Shown here: positions 41,709 to 51,018 of the stretch, one piece after another
Layout: each line of letters opens with the position of its first letter
How positions within the stretch are numbered: position 1 is the first letter of the stretch
From: an uncultured Acidobacteriota bacterium
GTDB taxonomy: Bacteria; Actinomycetota; Acidimicrobiia; Spongiisociales; ZC4RG35
Direction of reading: 5' to 3'
Length of the DNA stretch: 64,000 nucleotides
NCBI GenBank assembly: GCA_963828465.1
Contig: CAWHEU010000018.1
Location: forward strand, 128,001 to 192,000
The notes under the pieces: model-generated
What the model was told of the DNA's origin: nothing
The model's input: only the letters and a program-made list of their open reading frames with translations
Databases searched by the model: none
Made by a program: the position numbers and the translations under genes

Positions 41709-42935
41709 GTGAAGCGGCGGTTCATTGCACTCCTCGTCACCTCTTTGGTGATGGTCGCTTGCGCCCAAACTCCGCCCGACCGCGGCGCCCTGCCTGATGT
41801 CGGCGAGGCCGTCGACCCACCCGCCCAATGCACGTTCCTGGTCGGGGAGCCACAGGGCGTGTTGGTGCAGGAGGTCACTCCCGATTCGGCAGCCGACGGG
41901 CTTCTGATCGTCGGTGATGTGATCGTGTCCTTCGACAATCAGCCAACCCTCGATTCCGAGTCCTTGCTCGCCGCCCTGGGCGAGAAAGAGGTGGGGGACG
42001 TCGTCGAGGTCTCTGTCATGAGAGGGGATGAGGAAACAGAGCAAACGCTGACCCTGGGCGATGCCTCCGGGGAGCCGAGGATCGGGGTCATGATCAGGAC
42101 CCAGTACCAGGCCGTCGAGGCGGCTGACATCGACACCGAAGTGGAGCCTGGGGCCCTGACACGCCCCATTGCCATCTCCGGCCTCATCTACCTGTTCAAC
42201 GCCGGCAGCAATGTATGGGAGCGCACCGAAGTCGAGGTGGCCGAGGAGATCAATTGGGTGGCGACCACCGCCGGCATCTACGGGATCCAGGACGAGGTCA
42301 TCACCGACCTGGTCGCGGGCGAGGAGATCACCCATGACGGGTTCGAGGGCTGGGAGCCGATCCGGGTCATCGGGTCCGTCGGCGAGGACTTGATCCTGGT
42401 CGTCACCCAGGAGGTCCCCGACGAACCAGAGCGAGTGGCTGTCGGCGTGTCACGGTTCAGCCCGTTCACGTCTGAGACCACCTGGGCTCAGCCGGTCGTG
42501 GAAGGATTCGGCATCCCCATCTCAGCGTTGGGATCACCTGATGGCAATGCAATCGCTGTTGTCGGTGTCAACGAGGGGGGCTCGGAGATAACGGGGATCG
42601 ACATTTGGGATGGTGATGGGACCCCCGGTGGCGTGGAGGATCTGATCGCGCTCGGGACACCGGTCGGTTGGATGGACGACAAATCCTTGCTGTTCAGGAC
42701 CGACGTCGAGGTCGCTTCCGTGCTCACCGTGCCCGGCGGCGCCACCGAGGAGATCACCCTGGAGCCTGCCATCGGAGGCCTTCCGCTGTTCCCCGTGGGT
42801 GACGGCCGGGGCGTACTTGCCCTCGACAGCCAATCCCTCGTCTTGGACGACGTGACTCTGGTCGGGGACCTGCAGGTTCTGGCCGAGAATTGCGATTTCA
42901 GTCGGGTCGGCGAGCCAGGCTGGAGCGTCGCCTAG
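41709..42935 (+). CDS. PDZ-domain lipoprotein
   Basis: Lipobox MVAC, GVLVQEVTPDSAA..LIVGDVIVSFD PDZ signature, acidic beta-rich C-terminus. Confidence 0.78.
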   Translation: MKRRFIALLVTSLVMVACAQTPPDRGALPDVGEAVDPPAQCTFLVGEPQGVLVQEVTPDSAADGLLIVGDVIVSFDNQPTLDSESLLAALGEKEVGDVVEVSVMRGDEETEQTLTLGDASGEPRIGVMIRTQYQAVEAADIDTEVEPGALTRPIAISGLIYLFNAGSNVWERTEVEVAEEINWVATTAGIYGIQDEVITDLVAGEEITHDGFEGWEPIRVIGSVGEDLILVVTQEVPDEPERVAVGVSRFSPFTSETTWAQPVVEGFGIPISALGSPDGNAIAVVGVNEGGSEITGIDIWDGDGTPGGVEDLIALGTPVGWMDDKSLLFRTDVEVASVLTVPGGATEEITLEPAIGGLPLFPVGDGRGVLALDSQSLVLDDVTLVGDLQVLAENCDFSRVGEPGWSVA

Positions 42936-45247
42936 CTCTTCTCCCCTTCGATCGTCTGTGGGTTGTTGCTCGTCGACGCCACTTCGCGTCCGGAACGCTC
43001 CAGGGCGACACGCTGTCGCTCTCCGGCCACCTCGTCAGACACCGCCTGCCATCCAGTCGGCTCGCGCATGGCCTGTGAGCCCGGCGCACTCTCCATGATC
43101 TCGGCCACCTCATCGCCGGAGATCGTCTTCTTCTCCTCGAGGACGGCTGCCAGTTCGAGAATCTTGTCCTGATTCGCCTCGAGCAGTTCGTTCACCCGCT
43201 CGTACAGGATCTCGAGGCTGGCTTCGATCTCGGCGCGCTGCTCACGGAGTGCGATCGACACCGGGCTCGCCTGCCCACCCATTCCCGACTCGCGGGTATT
43301 CATCGCCGAGGCGAGACCCGAGCCCATGCCAAAAGACCCTTCCATCAGGGCGGCCACGGTCGAGGCAGAAGAAAGGTCCCCGGAGACCCCCGAGCTGTTG
43401 TCGCCGGCGAAGAACAGACGCTCACCTGCGAGAGAGGCCAGTGACACCATGATGTCGGTCTCCATCTCGGAGCGCCATTGGGTGAACCTCTCCTCCTGGC
43501 CCATCGACTTGACCATGCCCAGCGTGGAGGCTCTCTTCTCGATCGACACCATGTCGATCCGACGATGGGCGCCCAGAAGATGGGCGGTCACGGCGTGGCA
43601 GGCCTCGTGGATGGCGACGGCATGGCGTTCCCGCTGGATGTAGTCGACGTCCTCTGGTGGTCCGAGCTCTTTGAGAGACTTGGCCTTCCAGATGTCCTTC
43701 CACTCGATGGCCTCGCGGTCGTCCCTGACGGCGATGATGAGGGCCTCGTTGACCATGTCCTTGATCTTGGCTCCGGAGTACATCGGGGTCACGACGGCGA
43801 GACGTTCGATGTCATCCTCGGTGAGGTGATGCTCCACCTTGTTGAGGTATCCGACGATGGTCTGCTTGCGCCCCTCCTTGGAGGGATATCCCATCTTGTA
43901 GATCCGGTCGATGCGGCCGGGGCGAAGCATCGCCTCATCGAGGGCGTTTGGCATGTTGGTCGCCATGATGTGGAGGAGGCGGTACTTGGGAGGTGGCTTT
44001 GCCCGGAACCCGAGCAGCTTGCGAAACTTGTTGGTGATTCCGCGTGGCTTGGCCAGTCCGTTCATCTCGGTGAGCAGAGCCTGAAGGACACCCATGCCTC
44101 CGCCACCCCCCATCCCACCCATGATGATGCGGTCGATGAACCCGGGGTTTGGCTCTTCGACGGCGCGAGCCTCCTCGCCGGCCCAGTGGTTGGTCAGCAT
44201 GTCCTGAGTTTGCGGGGTCAAATAGTTGAACCCATTGCAAGAGAAGCCCCCGTAGGACATCGCCGCCGCTCCGAGCTGGCCAGTCGGTGACCCCATCTGC
44301 CCTCTCGACCCCAGCGAGTCCGCCTCGTCGAAGAAAACGATGACCCCGCCATGACGAAGACTGAGCTTGCGCAGCTTGCGGTAGAGACCCTTGACCTTGA
44401 GCAGTCCGATGCCCATGAACATGTTGACGAAGGCACCGGGCTCGACGAAGACATATGGCCGCCCTGTTTCCCCGGCTACTGCCTGAGCAAGCAGGGTCTT
44501 TCCCGTTCCCGGAGGGCCCCAGAGGAGGATCCCACCGGGTATGTAGCCACCCTTTTCCTCGATCTCGTCAGGTTTCTCCAGAAAGGCGATGTTCTCCCGG
44601 ATCAGATCGAGGACGTGGTCCTGGCCCCACACGTCGTCGAAGCGTGTGGTGACCTCTTCGGGGAGGATCACGTCGGTACCACCCCGGGACAGCAACCAGA
44701 AGATCCCGATGAACTGGATGGCGACGAAGAGGAAGCCAAACGAGAGCTGGAGAATGAAGGGGAAGGCCTGGGCAAAGAGACGCGGTGCCGCGGCCAGCGC
44801 TTCCAACGGCCCGTTGACCTCGGCGACGAAATAGTCGATGAGCAAGGCGGCCACGAAGATGTAGATCACCCTGCGGATGAAGCGACCCACCCGGAACCTG
44901 GTCCACGGTTTCATGTGGGCGTGGGTCCAACGCTCGATGCCCCCGAAGAAGCTGTCCTGCCAGAACGAGTTGTACGCCGCTGACCTTTCGGACAGCCAGT
45001 AATGGATCTGTCGGGTCAGCTCGAGCAGGAAAAGGATTCCCAGCGCCATCCCTGCCGTGGACGTGAAGAAAACGGCGGCGGCCTCCCAGAAGCTGATGAA
45101 TCCGACATCCTCGCTACTGGCGATGATGGCGCCGATGATGACGGCGAGGAGCACGAGGATCTTGATCCGGTCCCACGTGTCGGCCCGGCGCCTGGTGGCG
45201 CGTATGTCCCGCTGCCTGGTGTTCAAGCCCTCTTGTTTACGAGCCAT
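42932..45247 (-). CDS. FtsH-like membrane AAA+ ATPase with peptidase M41 domain
   Basis: N-terminal TM helices, GPPGTGKT, VFFDEAD, ATN...LDEAMLRPGRIDR, AIHEACH, SSGVSGDL. Confidence 0.88.
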   Translation of the reverse strand: MARKQEGLNTRQRDIRATRRRADTWDRIKILVLLAVIIGAIIASSEDVGFISFWEAAAVFFTSTAGMALGILFLLELTRQIHYWLSERSAAYNSFWQDSFFGGIERWTHAHMKPWTRFRVGRFIRRVIYIFVAALLIDYFVAEVNGPLEALAAAPRLFAQAFPFILQLSFGFLFVAIQFIGIFWLLSRGGTDVILPEEVTTRFDDVWGQDHVLDLIRENIAFLEKPDEIEEKGGYIPGGILLWGPPGTGKTLLAQAVAGETGRPYVFVEPGAFVNMFMGIGLLKVKGLYRKLRKLSLRHGGVIVFFDEADSLGSRGQMGSPTGQLGAAAMSYGGFSCNGFNYLTPQTQDMLTNHWAGEEARAVEEPNPGFIDRIIMGGMGGGGGMGVLQALLTEMNGLAKPRGITNKFRKLLGFRAKPPPKYRLLHIMATNMPNALDEAMLRPGRIDRIYKMGYPSKEGRKQTIVGYLNKVEHHLTEDDIERLAVVTPMYSGAKIKDMVNEALIIAVRDDREAIEWKDIWKAKSLKELGPPEDVDYIQRERHAVAIHEACHAVTAHLLGAHRRIDMVSIEKRASTLGMVKSMGQEERFTQWRSEMETDIMVSLASLAGERLFFAGDNSSGVSGDLSSASTVAALMEGSFGMGSGLASAMNTRESGMGGQASPVSIALREQRAEIEASLEILYERVNELLEANQDKILELAAVLEEKKTISGDEVAEIMESAPGSQAMREPTGWQAVSDEVAGERQRVALERSGREVASTSNNPQTIEGEKS

Positions 45248-45885
45248 GAATCGACCACTCCCTCGATCGCGTCTTGATTGGCGATGAAACATTCACGATT
45301 GCACCCGGCGATCATCGAATACATGCGGGTGTCGTCCTCATTGGACACGGAGATCAGATAGGCCACTCCCTGGGCGGTCGCCGCCTCGTCCTGGAAAGCG
45401 ACAAGCACTCTGACCCCGTCGAACCCGTTGCCGAAGCTGAAGTCCTCTTTGGTGATCTCCTCGCTGTTGGAGAGCCCGTAATACGGAAGGACGGACTGGG
45501 TCAGCATTGCACGGGAGAGGAGGTCTTTCTCGACCTCGCCGACCTGCCGCACGGACATCGATCCAATCGGGTATTCGGCCTCGGCGAGGTCTTTCGCCAC
45601 ATTGGAGACGTCGCGTACCGGGCCACCGTCGAATCCGACGCTGCTGATTGCAGGAAAACTGAAGCCCTGGACCTGCTCGTCGAAGGGCATGTCCTCCAGC
45701 TCGGAGAGCTCGGAGTGCTCGTAGACATGCCATGACTCCGGCAGATCGAACCGGCTCAAGCGCTCATCGTCGGTGAAGGTGACCACACCATCCGACTCCC
45801 CACCGGAACACGCCGCGAGCAGGAAGAAGAAGCTCGCCGCGATCATCAACCCGAGACGGGAGGTAGCGATCCTTCTGATGGCCAC
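45223..45885 (-). CDS. Hypothetical lipoprotein
   Basis: Lipobox LAAC; overlaps the start of the FtsH-like gene. Confidence 0.75.
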   Translation of the reverse strand: MAIRRIATSRLGLMIAASFFFLLAACSGGESDGVVTFTDDERLSRFDLPESWHVYEHSELSELEDMPFDEQVQGFSFPAISSVGFDGGPVRDVSNVAKDLAEAEYPIGSMSVRQVGEVEKDLLSRAMLTQSVLPYYGLSNSEEITKEDFSFGNGFDGVRVLVAFQDEAATAQGVAYLISVSNEDDTRMYSMIAGCNRECFIANQDAIEGVVDSWLVNKRA

Positions 45886-45950
45886 CAGCCTAGAGCCAGT
45901 GCCGAGTTTGTTGGCCAGAACCGGGATGTTTGCCGCTATCTTCCCCAGCC

Positions 45951-46856
45951 GTGAACCCCGTCACGAGACATCTGGTCCTCCGTGCTGAGGATGCCCGTTA
46001 CGACGTGCCATCGGAGATGGCGGATCACGTTTCCGGGTATGCCCGATGGTCGATGGTCGACCACACCACCCCCGGAGCCGTGCACACCGGATTCGGGGTG
46101 AGCAGGCTCAACGCCGGCGGGATGGTCGATGCACATGTCCACTCGTTCGAGGAGTCGTTCTACGTGCTGGATGGCTCGGTCATCGTCGAGACCCCTGAAG
46201 CAACGGTCGAGCTGGTGCCTGGTGACTACGGGATGGTCCCGATCGGCCTGCCCCATGCCTGGCGAAACGAATCAGGTCAGGATGCGAGCTGGGCCGACCT
46301 GATGACACCTCAACCCCGCCCGTGGTTCGACGGCGACACCTACTTCGTTCCCGGGCCGCCCGAACAAAAGCCGATACCGGTCGATCCCCGTGACCCGAGG
46401 ACCCGTTCCTTCGGGCACATCGCGCCGGAGAACATGGATCCGGGCAGGCAGAGCCAGGACCTCTTGGCGGTGTCGGCCAGCATGCGTACGGCCCTGCTCG
46501 TCTACACCGGCATCACGGTCAAGATGATGTCCGACACCGACCTTGGCGCCCAACTGTCCACGATGTTCATGGTCCAGTACGACCCTCGGGGTGGTCCCGG
46601 ATTCCACGACCATCCACTCGAGGAGACCTACTTCATCCTCGATGGCGAGGTCGAGGCATGGTTCGATGGCGAGCAGTATCTGCTGAAGGCCGGCGACGTC
46701 GCCTTCGCCGGGGTGGGAGCGGTTCATGCTTTCAACAACGCCACCGAGACCACGGTGCGCTGGCTGGAGACACAAGCGCCGGGCCCTCCGGCACGACATT
46801 CCTACCGCTTCGCCCGGGACTGGGACTATTTGACCGAGCGTCTCGGCGAGGGTTGA
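45951..46856 (+). CDS. Bicupin protein
   Basis: Two cupin motifs HVHSFEESFYVLDG...PHAW and HDHPLEETYFILDG...VHAF. Confidence 0.85.
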   Translation: MNPVTRHLVLRAEDARYDVPSEMADHVSGYARWSMVDHTTPGAVHTGFGVSRLNAGGMVDAHVHSFEESFYVLDGSVIVETPEATVELVPGDYGMVPIGLPHAWRNESGQDASWADLMTPQPRPWFDGDTYFVPGPPEQKPIPVDPRDPRTRSFGHIAPENMDPGRQSQDLLAVSASMRTALLVYTGITVKMMSDTDLGAQLSTMFMVQYDPRGGPGFHDHPLEETYFILDGEVEAWFDGEQYLLKAGDVAFAGVGAVHAFNNATETTVRWLETQAPGPPARHSYRFARDWDYLTERLGEG

Positions 46857-46858
46857 GC

Positions 46859-47765
46859 TCAGTCCTGCGTCAACGAGAGCCGGTCATAGGCGATGCCTCG
46901 CCCGAGCTCCTCGGCCCGACAGGTCAGGTAATCGGGTTCGTGGAGCTCCCGAGCCCCAACCTGGACCCGGTAATCGATCCCCTCAGGCACGCGAAAGACC
47001 ACCTCGGCTTGATCGTGGCTGGAACGTCGATATTCGACGATCGTGAGATCGTCGAGTCCGGTCAAGCCCATGGACTCGCGTAGGAAGTGCTCGGCAGCCT
47101 GTAGTAGCCGGGGATGGATGCTCCTACCGCGGTGATGAGAGAGGTCGAGCCTCCCCGCCTCGTACTCTGCGACGACATACGCCGCATCCTCTGGCCCGAC
47201 ACGACCGAAGTAGTCACCTCGTGGGAGCACGAGGACATTCCCGGCGAAGCGGTCTCCTCCTATGTGGGAGACCTCCCACGTCTGATCCGGGCGGAGCTGT
47301 GACATAGCTCGATAGAGGGGCCGTCCGTTGTCGGCGCAACATATGTCATGTCGGCCGTGCGTGCAGACGAGATAGACCGGATCCTCGACCGGCTCGCCGA
47401 ATTCGGACATCCTGCCCTCGGCCAGACCTGCGATGTCGAGACCGGCGACCTCGGCCGGATCTGAGAACGAGCCTGCAACCAGCGAGGGCTGGCGATCGAG
47501 CGCCGCCGGAGCTCGCCAGGTAGATGACGGGTGGCCGATCCTCACCATTCCGTCTCCGTATGAGCAAGGTCCTGATCCCGAGTCGGTTCGCGGCTTCGGT
47601 CAGCGGCCTGGCACTCTCCGGGAACCCGCTTTCGGTGAGGGCGTCGGGGCCCCACGCTCCCGGCTGCTCGAACAGGATCCAGGCATTGACCAGCGAGGCG
47701 GTCGCGAACAATTCCTCCTCACGCCCCAAGGACTCGCCGGAGCAACGAGGGCGCCCCGGGATCAC
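46859..47765 (-). CDS. Sucrase/ferredoxin-like (Apd1/Aim32-type) [2Fe-2S] protein, one frameshift near 47500
   Basis: N-part WILFEQPGAWG (ORF 47346-47765); C-part LVCTHGRHDICC, WEVSHIGGDRFAGN, YFGR, HRGRS, terminal LTC (ORF 46859-47548); GTGA overlap with the JmjC gene. Confidence 0.82.
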
Positions 47766-48952
47766 TCGACGACCTCGAGCAATCCTTCCACGATGAGACG
47801 GCGGACCAGCACGATGCGACCGGCTTCGTCGAGATATGGGGCCAATTGCGATACCGGGAGTTGCTCGTGTCGGAGCATGATCTCCACGGCGGGTTCGAGC
47901 CAGGCCGGCATTCTCAACTCCCGGTCACCGAGGAGCACGGACAGCTCACCATCTGCCGACGAAAGGGCGCACATGGCCCCCTCCCGCTTTCGTACGACGG
48001 ACTCGTCTGCGAGATCGTCGAGCGCAAGCAGCTGGTGGATCTGTCCACGTAGGACGGGTTGTCGCGTGGTCAGAAACCGTCGGCGGAGCCGTTCGGTGAT
48101 GATGCCGGCGTCTGCCTTGGCGAGCAGGGCGCCAAGTTCGGTGAGCCGCTCCTCGACGATCTGACCCAAGTCGTTCTTGTCGGCGAACCTGAGGGGCAGA
48201 GGCTCATTGACTATCAGATCCCCGCTGGTGAGCTTCACGGCCTCGTTCAACACCGTCGCCCAGGTGAGGCTGAGGATGCCGACCGTGATGTGGACCGACG
48301 CATCATCCTGCGTGCTGGCGGAATGTGGGAACCCGGCCGGGATGTAGAGCGAGTCACCCGGGCCGATGGCCGAATCGATCAGCGCTGGCCTGGTTGGGGG
48401 CAAGTCGTGCCGCTCGTGAACCTTCCATTGCTTCGTGCCGTGCGATTGCAGGACAAACACGTCGTGCTCATCCTCGTGGGCGTCAAATCCCTGCGATCCG
48501 GGTGGTGTGACATAGGCGTTGGCCTGAACGGGATGCCCCAGAGACTGTTCGAGTTGCCTGCAGAACAGAGCGAGAGGCTCCCAGTAGCGGTGCATGCCCT
48601 GGAAAACCATGGTCGCTCCAGAGCCAAACTCGCTGAACACCGCCCTGGCATCGAGCACGCCAATCGCTACATCGGAGCCGGTCCGGGTCGTCTTCGTGTA
48701 GCTGCCCGAAGGAAGGCTGTCTCCGTCCTTGACCAATCGAAAGGCCGGTAGGCGCAGACCTTGGGAGGAGACGATGCGATCGACGTCGTCCAAAGAGAGG
48801 AGGTCGTCGAACCCCCCACCCCCGTCGGCCCTCCGATACAGGGGTCTCTCACCCCAGAATTCTTGTTCGAATCGTCCCGGATCACCGACGCACCGGCTGA
48901 GGGCGCCGGGATCCGAGGGTTCGATTGGGTCGGACTCGGAATGCAGGGTCAG
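47762..48952 (-). CDS. JmjC/Cupin_4 (ROXA/NO66-like) 2OG-Fe(II) oxygenase
   Basis: QANAYVTPP, GFDAHEDEHDVFVLQ (HxD), GTKQW, YIPAGFPHSA (distal His), SVHITVG, C-terminal LVRRLIVEGLL; frame open upstream of 48793 (FEQEFWGERPL..R) to a CTG overlapping the peptide stop. Confidence 0.9.
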   Translation of the reverse strand: MTLHSESDPIEPSDPGALSRCVGDPGRFEQEFWGERPLYRRADGGGGFDDLLSLDDVDRIVSSQGLRLPAFRLVKDGDSLPSGSYTKTTRTGSDVAIGVLDARAVFSEFGSGATMVFQGMHRYWEPLALFCRQLEQSLGHPVQANAYVTPPGSQGFDAHEDEHDVFVLQSHGTKQWKVHERHDLPPTRPALIDSAIGPGDSLYIPAGFPHSASTQDDASVHITVGILSLTWATVLNEAVKLTSGDLIVNEPLPLRFADKNDLGQIVEERLTELGALLAKADAGIITERLRRRFLTTRQPVLRGQIHQLLALDDLADESVVRKREGAMCALSSADGELSVLLGDRELRMPAWLEPAVEIMLRHEQLPVSQLAPYLDEAGRIVLVRRLIVEGLLEVVE

Positions 48953-49176
48953 CTGTCCCGGGAGTCGGTGTCGGTTGTGTCGACACCATCCGTGTCCGTC
49001 GTGTCTACCCCGTCGGTGTCGGTGGAGTCGACTCCGTCGCTATCTGTCGAGTCGACGCCGTCCGAGTCTTGATCCGTCGAATCGCTGTCCCGCGTGGTCG
49101 CCGTCGGTCCCGCAGGAACGACCGTACGGATGTCTTCGTCGCTCAGGGTCCCGGGAGTGGTCTCACTCTCGCTCAT
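48949..49176 (-). CDS. 75-aa Asp/Thr/Ser-rich repeat peptide, putative RiPP-like precursor
   Basis: SD GAGGAG 8 nt before ATG; leader containing LSDEDI; core DSDSTDQ-(DSDGVDST)2-(DTDGVDTT)2-DTDSRDS; repeats diverge mainly at synonymous sites. Confidence 0.82.
   Translation of the reverse strand: MSESETTPGTLSDEDIRTVVPAGPTATTRDSDSTDQDSDGVDSTDSDGVDSTDTDGVDTTDTDGVDTTDTDSRDS
48973..49068 (-). repeat. Four imperfect 24-bp tandem repeats encoding D-[ST]-D-G-V-D-[ST]-T
   Basis: gactcggacggcgtcgactcgaca / gatagcgacggagtcgactccacc / gacaccgacggggtagacacgacg / gacacggatggtgtcgacacaacc (minus strand). Confidence 0.9.
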
Positions 49177-49247
49177 GTCGTCTCTCCTCGATCGAGGGCG
49201 TTCAAGCCCGAAGGTACAGGCGGATACCTACCCGGAATCAACCGGAT

Positions 49248-49610
49248 CTACGCAGACGCCTCGACGGCAGCGTTGTCACTCGTCGCCAGCACGAGCTGCC
49301 CGTCGCAGGAGATGTAGACCACCTCGATGTTGGCGCCGGCATTTGCCACGCGTCGACCGATCTCGCCCATCTCGCCGGGGCGGTTCTCGAAGGCGACTTT
49401 CACGACTTCATTGTCGGCGCCAACCTGGATACCCGCTTCGGTGAGGGCCGACCTCGCCGCGGCGGCGTCCTCGACGAGGATGTGCACCTCGCCGGACCCG
49501 GCCGTGCCCGAAATGCCGTCGATGTTCACGCCGGCACGTCCCAGTGCATCGCCCATATCGGCCAGAGCGCCAGGGCGGTCCTCCAATGTGACTGTCAGAT
49601 CGCGTGCCAT
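49248..49610 (-). CDS. Tandem ACT-domain protein
   Basis: LEDRPGALA...AGVNI and FENRPGEMG...AGANIEVVY. Confidence 0.9.
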   Translation of the reverse strand: MARDLTVTLEDRPGALADMGDALGRAGVNIDGISGTAGSGEVHILVEDAAAARSALTEAGIQVGADNEVVKVAFENRPGEMGEIGRRVANAGANIEVVYISCDGQLVLATSDNAAVEASA

Positions 49611-50061: not shown

Positions 50062-50610
50062 TTAGCTAGAGATCCGACCGAGGAACCAAGCCACGCCATC
50101 GCCCTCGTAGTCCGCCAGAATCTCGAGTTCGGCGAAGGCTTCCCGTAGCTCTCTGGGCCCTGCGTGGAAGCGACCAGGCTCGCCACCGACTTCGCTGAGA
50201 CTGGCGATGGCGAGCAGTCCACGGGGCGCCAGCCGCTCGATCAATTCTCGATCCAGCCGTGGCTCCCGATACATATGGCACACCACTAGATCCATCCGCG
50301 GCCCCGGAGGCAAACCCTCATCCAAATCCCAGACCTCGAACCGACACTGATCGGCAACACCGCTGCGTTGCGCCAGCTCGCGGGCGAATTCGATGGCGAT
50401 CGGCGAGACATCGACACCGAGCACATCCAGACCCCGAAGGGCCAGCCAGATCGACAGCTCGCCACGGCCGGAGGCGATTTCTAGGGCGCTGCCTTCGACC
50501 GGGAACAGATCCTCGATCACAGCGAACACAGATGGCGGACCCGGGTCACCGGAAGCAGGACCCGCCTCGGCGTGCCGCTCGTCCCAACGTCGGCGGTCAG
50601 CTTCACTCAC
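50062..50610 (-). CDS. Class I SAM-dependent methyltransferase (TehB-like)
   Basis: DRRRWDERH, ALEIASGRG, GVDVS, WDLD, LAPRGLL; GTG start at 50610. Confidence 0.85.
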   Translation of the reverse strand: MSEADRRRWDERHAEAGPASGDPGPPSVFAVIEDLFPVEGSALEIASGRGELSIWLALRGLDVLGVDVSPIAIEFARELAQRSGVADQCRFEVWDLDEGLPPGPRMDLVVCHMYREPRLDRELIERLAPRGLLAIASLSEVGGEPGRFHAGPRELREAFAELEILADYEGDGVAWFLGRISS

Positions 50611-50622
50611 GGCTGGCACAAT

Positions 50623-51018
50623 ATGGCCTTGGCCGATTCCGATCCGGTTTCCCTGATTCGTCCCGATGATCGAGTCGATGGTGACCAAACACCAGGAATG
50701 ATTCGCGAGCAAGCGCTGGTTACTGGCGACATGTGGGCGGGTTTGGTGAGGACCGAGCCGCACATGGTTTCCGGATGGCACCACCACGGCGACCATGAGA
50801 CCTCGATCTACGTGATCTCGGGTGCATTACGAATGGAATCCGGTCCTGAAGGTGAGTCAATAGTCGAAGCCGCTCCAGGCGACTTCCTCTACGTCCCCAA
50901 GGGAGCGGTTCACCGTGAGGCCAACCCCGGGGACGAGGAGAGCCAGATCGTCGTGGTCCGGGTCGGGCACGGGCCCACTGTCATCAATGTGACGACTCCC
51001 GCGAGCCGTCAAGCCTGA
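50623..51018 (+). CDS. Cupin_2 domain protein
   Basis: SGWHHHGDHETSIYV, PGDFLYVPKGAVHRE. Confidence 0.88.
   Translation: MALADSDPVSLIRPDDRVDGDQTPGMIREQALVTGDMWAGLVRTEPHMVSGWHHHGDHETSIYVISGALRMESGPEGESIVEAAPGDFLYVPKGAVHREANPGDEESQIVVVRVGHGPTVINVTTPASRQA

Follow-up and report, generated by a model that had tools for sequence, protein, structure and literature searches.

A conserved three-gene cassette in Actinomycetota combines an acidic repeat peptide, a ROX-type JmjC oxygenase and a sucrase/ferredoxin-like protein

Factor inhibiting HIF (FIH) is a JmjC hydroxylase of Asn, Asp and His residues in ankyrin repeats. The ribosomal oxygenases (ROX), represented by E. coli YcfD (RoxA) and by human NO66 and MINA53, contain a PF08007 domain with an HxD...H triad and are built of three parts. 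In the field of peptides that are synthesized ribosomally and modified post-translationally (RiPPs), two 2-oxoglutarate (2OG)/Fe(II) enzymes of the JmjC type that act on ribosomal precursor peptides have been described: BipG, an ornithine hydroxylase of the biphenomycin pathway (PMC12707348), and CzlI, a phenylalanine hydroxylase of the curacozole pathway (PMC11575548). Here we describe a locus in a 64,000-nucleotide stretch of DNA (hereafter, the window; positions 128,001 to 192,000 of contig CAWHEU010000018.1, assembly GCA_963828465.1, labelled as an uncultured Acidobacteriota bacterium and assigned by GTDB to the Acidimicrobiia), in which the gene for a ROX-type JmjC oxygenase lies between a gene for a small acidic repeat peptide and a gene for a sucrase/ferredoxin-like (Suc_Fer-like) protein. 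We found no description of this trio in searches of the open-access literature. The trio looks like a new peptide-modifying system, with the action of JmjC enzymes on RiPP precursors already known as a principle. An earlier reading of the window (the sequence-only reading), which the present computational analysis followed up, had stated that no characterised pathway with this trio was known to it; this holds for the trio and does not hold for the principle, given the published examples of BipG and CzlI.

Gene layout and recurrence of the cassette

All three genes are encoded on the minus strand, and each overlaps the next by four nucleotides. The first is an open reading frame (ORF) at 48949..49176 for a small acidic protein of 75 amino acids plus the stop codon, the putative precursor or substrate, and a Shine-Dalgarno-like GAGGAG read from the sequence (49184..49189, minus strand) is located 7 nt 5' of its ATG. 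The second gene encodes the ROX-type JmjC 2OG/Fe(II) oxygenase (47762..48952), which has 396 amino acids if a CTG is the start codon. The third encodes the Suc_Fer-like protein (46859..47765; PF06999) with a thioredoxin-like, predicted [2Fe-2S] domain. At the first junction, CTGA (48949..48952), the TGA of the peptide gene (48951-48949) overlaps a CTG in the JmjC frame (48952-48950), which is the probable start codon of that gene; at the second, GTGA (47762..47765), the ferredoxin-like gene begins with a GTG that overlaps the JmjC stop codon. The arrangement of the three genes on one strand, the two overlaps and the 75-amino acid repeat peptide had all been described in the sequence-only reading and were recovered here at the same positions, the peptide both as an ORF and as a 24-nt tandem repeat. 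With regard to the gene models, the trio proved to be real, whereas a frameshift that interrupts the third gene and the lack of a canonical start for the JmjC gene had been overlooked.

To follow the cassette through related genomes, we searched a set of 41 genomes made up of the window's own genome, its genus and its order. The JmjC query matched 18 of the 41 genomes, and a peptide profile (alignment A2) matched the same 18, once each and directly upstream of the JmjC gene. A profile for the ferredoxin-like protein (alignment A3) matched 17 of these 18 genomes, the contig of the missing one ending inside the JmjC gene, and with these profiles neither the peptide nor the ferredoxin-like partner was detected in any of the 23 JmjC-negative genomes of the set. 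In wider samples, the JmjC gene was present in 19 of 301 genomes of the order (5 of 98 genera) and, at E ≤ 1e-15, in 76 of the 401 genomes sampled from the phylum (48 of 249 genera). A pattern scan of a species-representative genome collection yielded at least 599 candidate stretches, and 585 of these were confirmed; the taxa among the matches listed were Acidimicrobiia, Nocardioides, Micropruina, Propioniciclava, Nitriliruptorales, Egibacteraceae and one 'Chloroflexi bacterium'. The cassette formed by the three genes is thus conserved and recurs across Actinomycetota.

The association of the acidic repeat ORF with the JmjC gene was also assessed locus by locus. The ORF was called by script 5' of the JmjC gene at 54 of 60 related loci and was visible by eye at the remaining six, of which one was N-masked (L021), one was cut by a contig end (L023), one was frameshifted (L029) and three carried variants of the motif (L024, L035 and L051). 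In a second set of 80 loci, which overlaps the first in species, the acidic ORF was called at 74, with a contig edge at three and no call at three, and a ferredoxin-like gene was detected downstream by tblastn at 75, with a contig edge at three and the gene absent at two. The sequence-only reading had named as a test against its own proposal that JmjC/ferredoxin pairs might usually lack an upstream acidic ORF; this test was run and did not refute the proposal, the ORF being found at essentially every locus read. The JmjC proteins of three loci (L061-L063) were 77-92% identical to that of the window. These loci are labelled 'uncultured Acidobacteriota bacterium', other close relatives are Acidimicrobiia, and the label seems inconsistent.

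Broken copies of the genes were seen in several relatives (G006, G012, G015, G022, G023, L029, L031 and L054), with the JmjC gene spread over two to four frames, the ferredoxin-like gene over two or three, and one peptide gene frameshifted. Most such genomes consist of few contigs, which suggests indel-prone long-read assemblies as the source of the breaks; G022 has approximately 580 contigs, so gene decay may also play a part.

The JmjC frame of the window contains no ATG, GTG or TTG between the upstream stop codon and TTG 48793, and this TTG is located inside conserved protein sequence. The ORF listing starts the gene at TTG 48793; we infer the CTG start instead. Among 47 loci at which the junction between the peptide stop and the JmjC gene was compared, the overlap was CTGA in 14, GTGA in three and TTGA in one (L011, G018). 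Approximately 17 loci of one clade have an ATG 20-23 nt inside the 3' end of the peptide gene, and at the remaining loci the start is 7-62 nt downstream. No canonical JmjC start exists at all in ten CTGA loci, the window included (L001-L005, L012, L014, L022, L026 and L042). In the overlap-bearing Acidimicrobiia loci, the spacer between the CTG and the conserved A-L-x-R-C-V-G is always 16 codons long despite many substitutions. The JmjC protein is thus probably translated by coupling to the peptide, and from CUG in the window's lineage, and the conserved CTGA junction without a canonical start provides a natural test case for CUG initiation via translational coupling.

The lack of a canonical start, the JmjC frame being open back into the repeat region, would also be expected if the small ORF encoded the N-terminus of the JmjC protein and were fused to the rest by a frameshift, either programmed or a sequencing error, and at least one indel error is present nearby in the assembly. 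We disfavor this explanation and regard it as highly improbable, given that a stop codon closes the peptide ORF in all 54 script-called peptides, that the frame offset between peptide and JmjC is 0, 1 or 2 depending on the lineage, and that many lineages have their own JmjC ATG or GTG after or near the peptide stop. A search among longer proteins, which constitutes weak evidence, gave three matches of 140-233 amino acids and no JmjC fusion.

An RNA-library contig of 1057 nt from a soil metatranscriptome, 93% identical to the window, covers positions 48220-49250, which comprise the peptide gene together with the 5' part of the JmjC gene. Individual runs left some of the stretch uncovered, an observation to which we attach no weight. 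Given that DNA can occur in such libraries, this contig is a weak hint that the cassette of a relative is expressed, and its extension over two genes does not show a single transcript. A consensus scan of 46600-49500 revealed no promoter-like site, and the number of terminator-like hairpins in the promoter/terminator scan (one, compared with 1.3 expected from shuffled sequences) is evidence in neither direction.

The acidic peptide, the oxygenase and their predicted contact

The peptide consists of a leader region, approximately residues 1-30 (49087..49176, minus strand), in which the motif G-T-L-S-D-E-D-I-R-T-V occupies residues 9-19, and a core of tandem octapeptides D-G-V-D-[ST]-T-D-[ST] (48964..49068, minus strand). 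Tandem Repeats Finder reported a 24-nt period with 4.2 copies at 48968-49068 as well as a period of 48 with 2.1 copies. Peptide identity was 53-97% across all 20 of the loci compared; lengths range from 55 to 148 amino acids, and the number of repeats varies even among close relatives. An alignment of 25 sequences (A2) gave the leader consensus L-x-D-[ED]-[DE]-I-x-T, followed by a poorly conserved linker and then by the repeats, with Met1 and Ile16 being invariant and D13 and T18 at least 90% conserved. As judged by eye, the leader-motif codons of close relatives vary chiefly at third positions, with four Arg codons and three Thr codons in use, for example. Pairwise comparison of the first 20 codons gave 457 synonymous and 690 non-synonymous differences, a count that alone is no proof of purifying selection because the first 10 residues are variable.

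The cores of the 54 peptides are composed of 34% D, 17% T, 17% G, 10% S, 7% A and 6% V; Arg, Lys and His together amount to approximately 3%, Cys and Trp do not occur, and DGxD is present at least three times in 49 of the 54 peptides. From this composition alone, a metal-binding product is plausible. All 63 database relatives of similar length are annotated as 'hypothetical protein' or are unnamed, and none has a Pfam domain. Neither did any of five cassette peptides match a Pfam family even at E ≤ 10, and a thrombospondin-type-3 or EF-hand-like calcium motif, which the repeats had called to mind, was set aside as a resemblance only. The four cassette proteins or protein pieces matched no NCBIfam family, and the neighbors of the peptide in a protein atlas were exclusively unnamed Actinomycetota clusters, with best scores of 0.93, 0.90 and 0.88.

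The second protein matched JmjC_2 (PF08007) with 78.5 bits (cut-off, 22; E 4.1e-22) and belongs by this profile to the ROX family. The matched catalytic domain comprises residues 131-232 (48257..48562, minus strand). Residues H159, D161, H210 and K174 were invariant in all 19 orthologs compared and are aligned with motifs of NO66. The triad that had been read from the sequence as intact is thereby confirmed, with H159, D161 and H210 aligned to the NO66 triad region, and K174 aligns to the Lys of 'GRKLW' in NO66, which we take to be the 2OG-binding Lys. The nearest solved proteins by sequence were NO66 (E 2.9e-14), MINA53 and YcfD, with only 16-21% sequence identity between the ROX enzymes and the cassette protein.

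A structure model of the JmjC protein (pLDDT [predicted local distance difference test] 89.2; residues 1-13 disordered) showed the three-part ROX build of a JmjC barrel, a helical middle or dimerisation domain, for which dimerisation is only predicted, and a C-terminal winged helix. Foldseek placed NO66 first (E 1.6e-26; template modelling [TM] score, 0.70), followed by MINA53 and YcfD, also with near full-length alignments, and by a YcfD-like enzyme of Rhodothermus, with FIH far behind. FIH resembles the enzyme proposed here in being a JmjC hydroxylase that acts on acidic or amide side chains of repeats, and its fold was matched at E ~1e-8; however, it is distant (TM 0.35) and lacks the winged helix, the leader and the dedicated substrate gene. 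Unlike the ROX enzymes, the cassette JmjC protein is paired with an acidic repeat peptide and a ferredoxin-like gene, and it is predicted to bind a leader through its winged helix.

This C-terminal domain (approximately residues 317-396; 47765..48004, minus strand) consists of four strands (E319-322, E329-333, E336-340 and E345-349) followed by three helices (H350-361, H367-370 and H376-388), and residues L341, R344, L346, P349, L382, R385 and L386 are invariant among orthologs. Prediction of the complex of the JmjC protein (alignment A1) with the peptide (A2) gave ipSAE (interaction prediction score from aligned errors) values of 0.69, 0.72 and 0.69 in three runs, compared with 0.00 for the best of three controls. 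Of 80 solved complexes, 58 reach the mark set by the tool, as do 2 of 110 mismatched pairs, a calibration that holds only roughly here, our own alignments having been supplied to the prediction. The runs share at least 28% of contacts. The confident interface is formed by peptide residues 7-13 and 15-21 and by enzyme residues 292, 295-296, 343-349, 351-352 and 371-389, and it joins invariant residues of the leader to invariant residues of the winged helix. Because the closest enzyme-peptide pairs (348-16, 346-18 and 345-19) run antiparallel, the leader is predicted to pair as an added strand with the final strand of the winged helix and, further, to pack on the last helix, in a manner like that of a RiPP recognition element (RRE).

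PMC12710340 defines the RRE by an order of strands and helices that the cassette C-terminal domain matches. It also notes RRE-like winged helices fused to PF08007 domains, reports these fusions from fish and algae, and refers to bacterial homologs in other settings (its references 40-45); no description of the present cassette was encountered there. The antiparallel strand addition and the packing on the last helix that are predicted for the cassette leader are likewise RRE-like. With respect to RiPP systems in general, the locus has a small precursor-like gene, its leader conserved and its core variable, beside the gene of the putative modifying enzyme; a domain that would bind the leader is predicted in silico; and no leader protease or exporter was found next to the genes. 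The pairing of peptide and oxygenase as substrate and enzyme is supported by conservation, co-occurrence and the modelled interface.

The same prediction bears on two explanations in which the peptide would not be modified. In the first, ribosomal proteins would still be the targets of the JmjC oxygenase, and the acidic protein would itself go unmodified, serving as a bound regulator, as a pseudo-substrate or acidic-surface mimic, or as a chaperone holding the enzyme. All of the nearest solved relatives are indeed ribosomal oxygenases, translational coupling would suit a stoichiometric partner, and the prediction places only the leader and not the core. However, this explanation gives no role to the strictly co-occurring ferredoxin-like gene, and variable repeats behind a conserved leader are typical of substrates. 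In addition, the JmjC query had only one match in the window's own genome, with no separate housekeeping copy seen beside it. The predicted contact, the co-occurrence and the composition of the cores likewise argue for a substrate other than a ribosomal protein. We consider this first explanation unlikely. In the second, the unmodified repeats would bind Fe(II), Ca(II) or another cation and buffer the metal for, or deliver it to, the two downstream iron proteins. The high Asp content of the core, the D-x-D-G-x-D-like spacing in most members and the requirement of both downstream proteins for iron are compatible with such a function, whereas a metal buffer would have no need of a conserved leader docked on a winged helix, and no calcium- or metal-binding Pfam family matched any of the five peptides tried at E ≤ 10. 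We judge a simple metal buffer to be quite unlikely.

The ferredoxin-like protein

The third protein matched Suc_Fer-like PF06999 with 72.6 bits (cut-off, 34.9). Its gene is split in the window into two overlapping ORFs in different frames, 47346..47765 (139 amino acids) and 46859..47548 (229 amino acids). A DNA alignment with three related loci (L002, L007 and L003) revealed one extra base in the window compared with its two closest relatives, at a site (47498..47500, minus strand) that breaks the gene. In each of three DNA runs from three studies, the single covering contig lacked one base at 47498-47500, and one of these contigs was otherwise identical to the window over 213 nt. Depth was below 5 in two of the three contigs; each is weak alone, yet they agree with one another and with the relatives. 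All three covering contigs and both of the closest relatives lack the extra base, which is therefore probably an artefact of the assembly, or else a private mutation, and not a property of the system. Among the 60 related loci, the ferredoxin-like gene was in one frame at 53, in different frames at four, absent from the locus at two and partial at one.

The structure was modelled for the intact ortholog of L002 (L002:1866-2765), which is 85-88% identical to the window pieces, with alignment A3, and gave a pLDDT of 87.6. A central domain of approximately 108 amino acids superposed on Aquifex Fd4 (1f37) with a target TM of 0.72 over 108 columns, the next matches being FeSI and the 24-kDa subunit of complex I. 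A sequence search of the PDB gave no match for the protein, and no structural match was obtained for the N- and C-terminal domains that flank the central one.

The sequence C-T-[HN]-G-x-x-D-x-C-C, with the Cys pair of the putative cluster-binding loop, was found in 47 of 47 aligned rows, with C134, C142 and C143 being invariant, and a motif H-x-G-G-D-R-F-A has H167 and D171 invariant in 20 of 20 sequences. Two further invariant Cys residues, C8 and C281, lie in the flanking domains. The yeast prototypes of the family, Apd1 and Aim32, carry HxGGH. This C-terminal bis-histidine motif was not found in the cassette proteins, in which the position of the second His is occupied by Asp, and because of this Asp the ligand set of the cluster may differ from that of Apd1 and Aim32. 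The H-x-G-G-D motif together with C8 and C281 could possibly form an additional metal site or a Cys pair with redox activity. The cassette protein shares the PF06999 domain with Apd1/Aim32 and the fold of the central domain with Aquifex Fd4, has the invariant Cys pair of C134 with C142/C143, and differs from Apd1/Aim32 in its HxGGD motif, its additional N- and C-terminal domains and its invariant C8 and C281. The designation as an Apd1/Aim32-type [2Fe-2S] protein in the sequence-only reading agrees with the PF06999 match and the thioredoxin-like ferredoxin fold, but it took no account of the split frame.

Proposed mechanism, genomic neighbors and implications

We propose, with a moderate degree of confidence, that the three proteins operate as one coupled module in which the winged helix of the JmjC protein captures the leader, the repeats are oxidised with a ferredoxin-like partner at hand, and the product stays in the cell. 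According to this model, the three genes would constitute a single translationally coupled unit. The leader would dock on the C-terminal winged helix as an added beta-strand, as the complex prediction indicates, and docking would tether the repeats near the active site, where the JmjC center would oxidise them several times. The most likely reaction would be beta-hydroxylation of Asp, with Thr, Ser or Gly as alternative targets. Asp is the leading candidate because it is the sole residue common to all cores and because Arg and His, the targets of ROX enzymes, are nearly absent from the repeats. Hydroxylation of Asp by JmjC enzymes is stated in the discussion section of the CzlI paper (PMC11575548). 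The Suc_Fer-like protein would most likely serve as a dedicated one-electron partner, for example by returning the oxygenase iron to Fe(II), a role suggested by its ferredoxin fold and strict co-occurrence. The modified polyanionic protein would probably remain intracellular, because no protease or exporter is conserved nearby. Modification of the peptide, the residue that is hit, the role of the ferredoxin-like protein and the purpose of the product are points that we infer. For the repeated Asp beta-hydroxylation, the reducing Fe-S protein and the Fe/Ca-chelating product put forward in the sequence-only reading, the support is indirect and comes from the composition of the cores. A graspetide-like Thr-Asp ester cross-link was also considered and set aside, no ATP-grasp gene being present among the conserved neighbors.

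Several observations weigh against the proposed module. Known ROX enzymes act on ribosomal proteins and not on dedicated peptides, and tight translational coupling of a 1:1 style would fit a stable subunit or a regulator as well. The score of the predicted complex is the model's own confidence; the peptide partner has a pLDDT of 41, so that its fold is uncertain, only the leader is placed confidently, and no repeat residue is placed in the active site. The presence of HxGGD instead of HxGGH leaves the binding of a [2Fe-2S] cluster by the ferredoxin-like protein a prediction. Because the genomes compared are kin, fewer independent events underlie the co-occurrence than the counts suggest. Finally, the cassette is often interrupted: the JmjC gene is in pieces in G012, G015, G022, G006 and L031 and the ferredoxin-like gene in G000, G006 and G023, which could reflect assembly error or decay.

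Neighboring genes were analyzed at 80 loci, with flanks of up to 7 kb, by ORF calling filtered for GC content at third codon positions (GC3) followed by clustering. The JmjC gene was recovered at 75 loci and the ferredoxin-like gene at 49 by ORF calling, and no other gene cluster was common to more than 18. The next most frequent neighbors were a LuxR-type regulator with AAA_16, TPR and GerE domains (18 loci), a probable antisense shadow (15), a cytochrome P450 (P450; 11) and a transporter of the major facilitator superfamily (MFS; 6); the regulator, the P450 and the MFS transporter were confined to a Nocardioides-type subset. No gene for a leader protease or exporter is conserved near the cassette among the 80 loci, and the absence of such genes beside the cassette, which had been noted earlier for the window, holds both there and over this set.

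These neighborhoods bear on the possibility that the cassette makes a classical RiPP natural product destined for export, for example a metallophore or an antibiotic, with the JmjC enzyme tailoring the repeats and the protease and exporter encoded elsewhere or specific to certain lineages. The precursor-like anatomy and the predicted recognition of the leader would fit such a product equally well, and the Nocardioides-type subset does have the LuxR-type regulator at 18, the P450 at 11 and the MFS transporter at 6 of the 80 loci. On the other hand, beyond the JmjC and ferredoxin-like genes nothing is shared by more than 18 loci, no protease or exporter lies beside the window cassette, and the window peptide has no signal-like N-terminus. 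We think an exported natural product improbable, about as much so as a ribosomal-protein oxygenase with an unmodified acidic partner.

The LuxR-type regulator, of approximately 985 amino acids, ends just 5' of the peptide gene on the same strand (L090, L102, L109, L112, L121, L122, L127, L133, L135 and L136, among others), and the P450 and an MFS_3 transporter are located 3' of the cassette in some of these Nocardioides-type loci. In the window, the neighbors are an ACT-domain protein, a methyltransferase, cupins and a B3/4-domain protein, with an FtsH-like protease beyond a convergent bicupin gene. The bicupin gene (45930-46856, plus strand) and a single cupin gene (50572-51018, plus strand) flank the cassette; their conservation is limited to the closest relatives, and nothing was seen that would link them to the cassette. 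The FtsH-like protein (42932-45292, minus strand; 786 amino acids) carries Peptidase_M41 and an AAA domain, the latter matched by Pfam in two stretches; its N-terminal region is long, it contains a Gly/Met-rich insertion, and it may be an atypical FtsH paralog.

A more far-reaching reading is that the cassette defines a new family of leader-guided poly-beta-hydroxy-Asp repeat proteins, present across Actinomycetota as an intracellular, genetically encoded metal-binding polymer; a re-purposed ROX-type JmjC enzyme would read the leader with its winged helix, and a dedicated [2Fe-2S] protein would keep this enzyme reduced or reduce the bound metal. We put this forward tentatively and regard it as doubtful; if it is correct, the winged helix of ROX enzymes, to which no function has so far been assigned, would gain a role in peptide binding. 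If the pairing of peptide and oxygenase is true, the cassette would be a widespread and compact three-gene module for the modification of ribosomal peptides, with at least 585 loci that include cultured Nocardioides such as N. immobilis and N. antri. Such a pairing would tie ROX-type JmjC enzymes to leader-guided catalysis and suggest a function for their winged helix, and it would provide a bacterial role for the poorly understood sucrase/ferredoxin-like (Apd1/Aim32) family. The polyanionic, possibly hydroxylated Asp-rich product could bear on metal handling in soil Actinomycetota.

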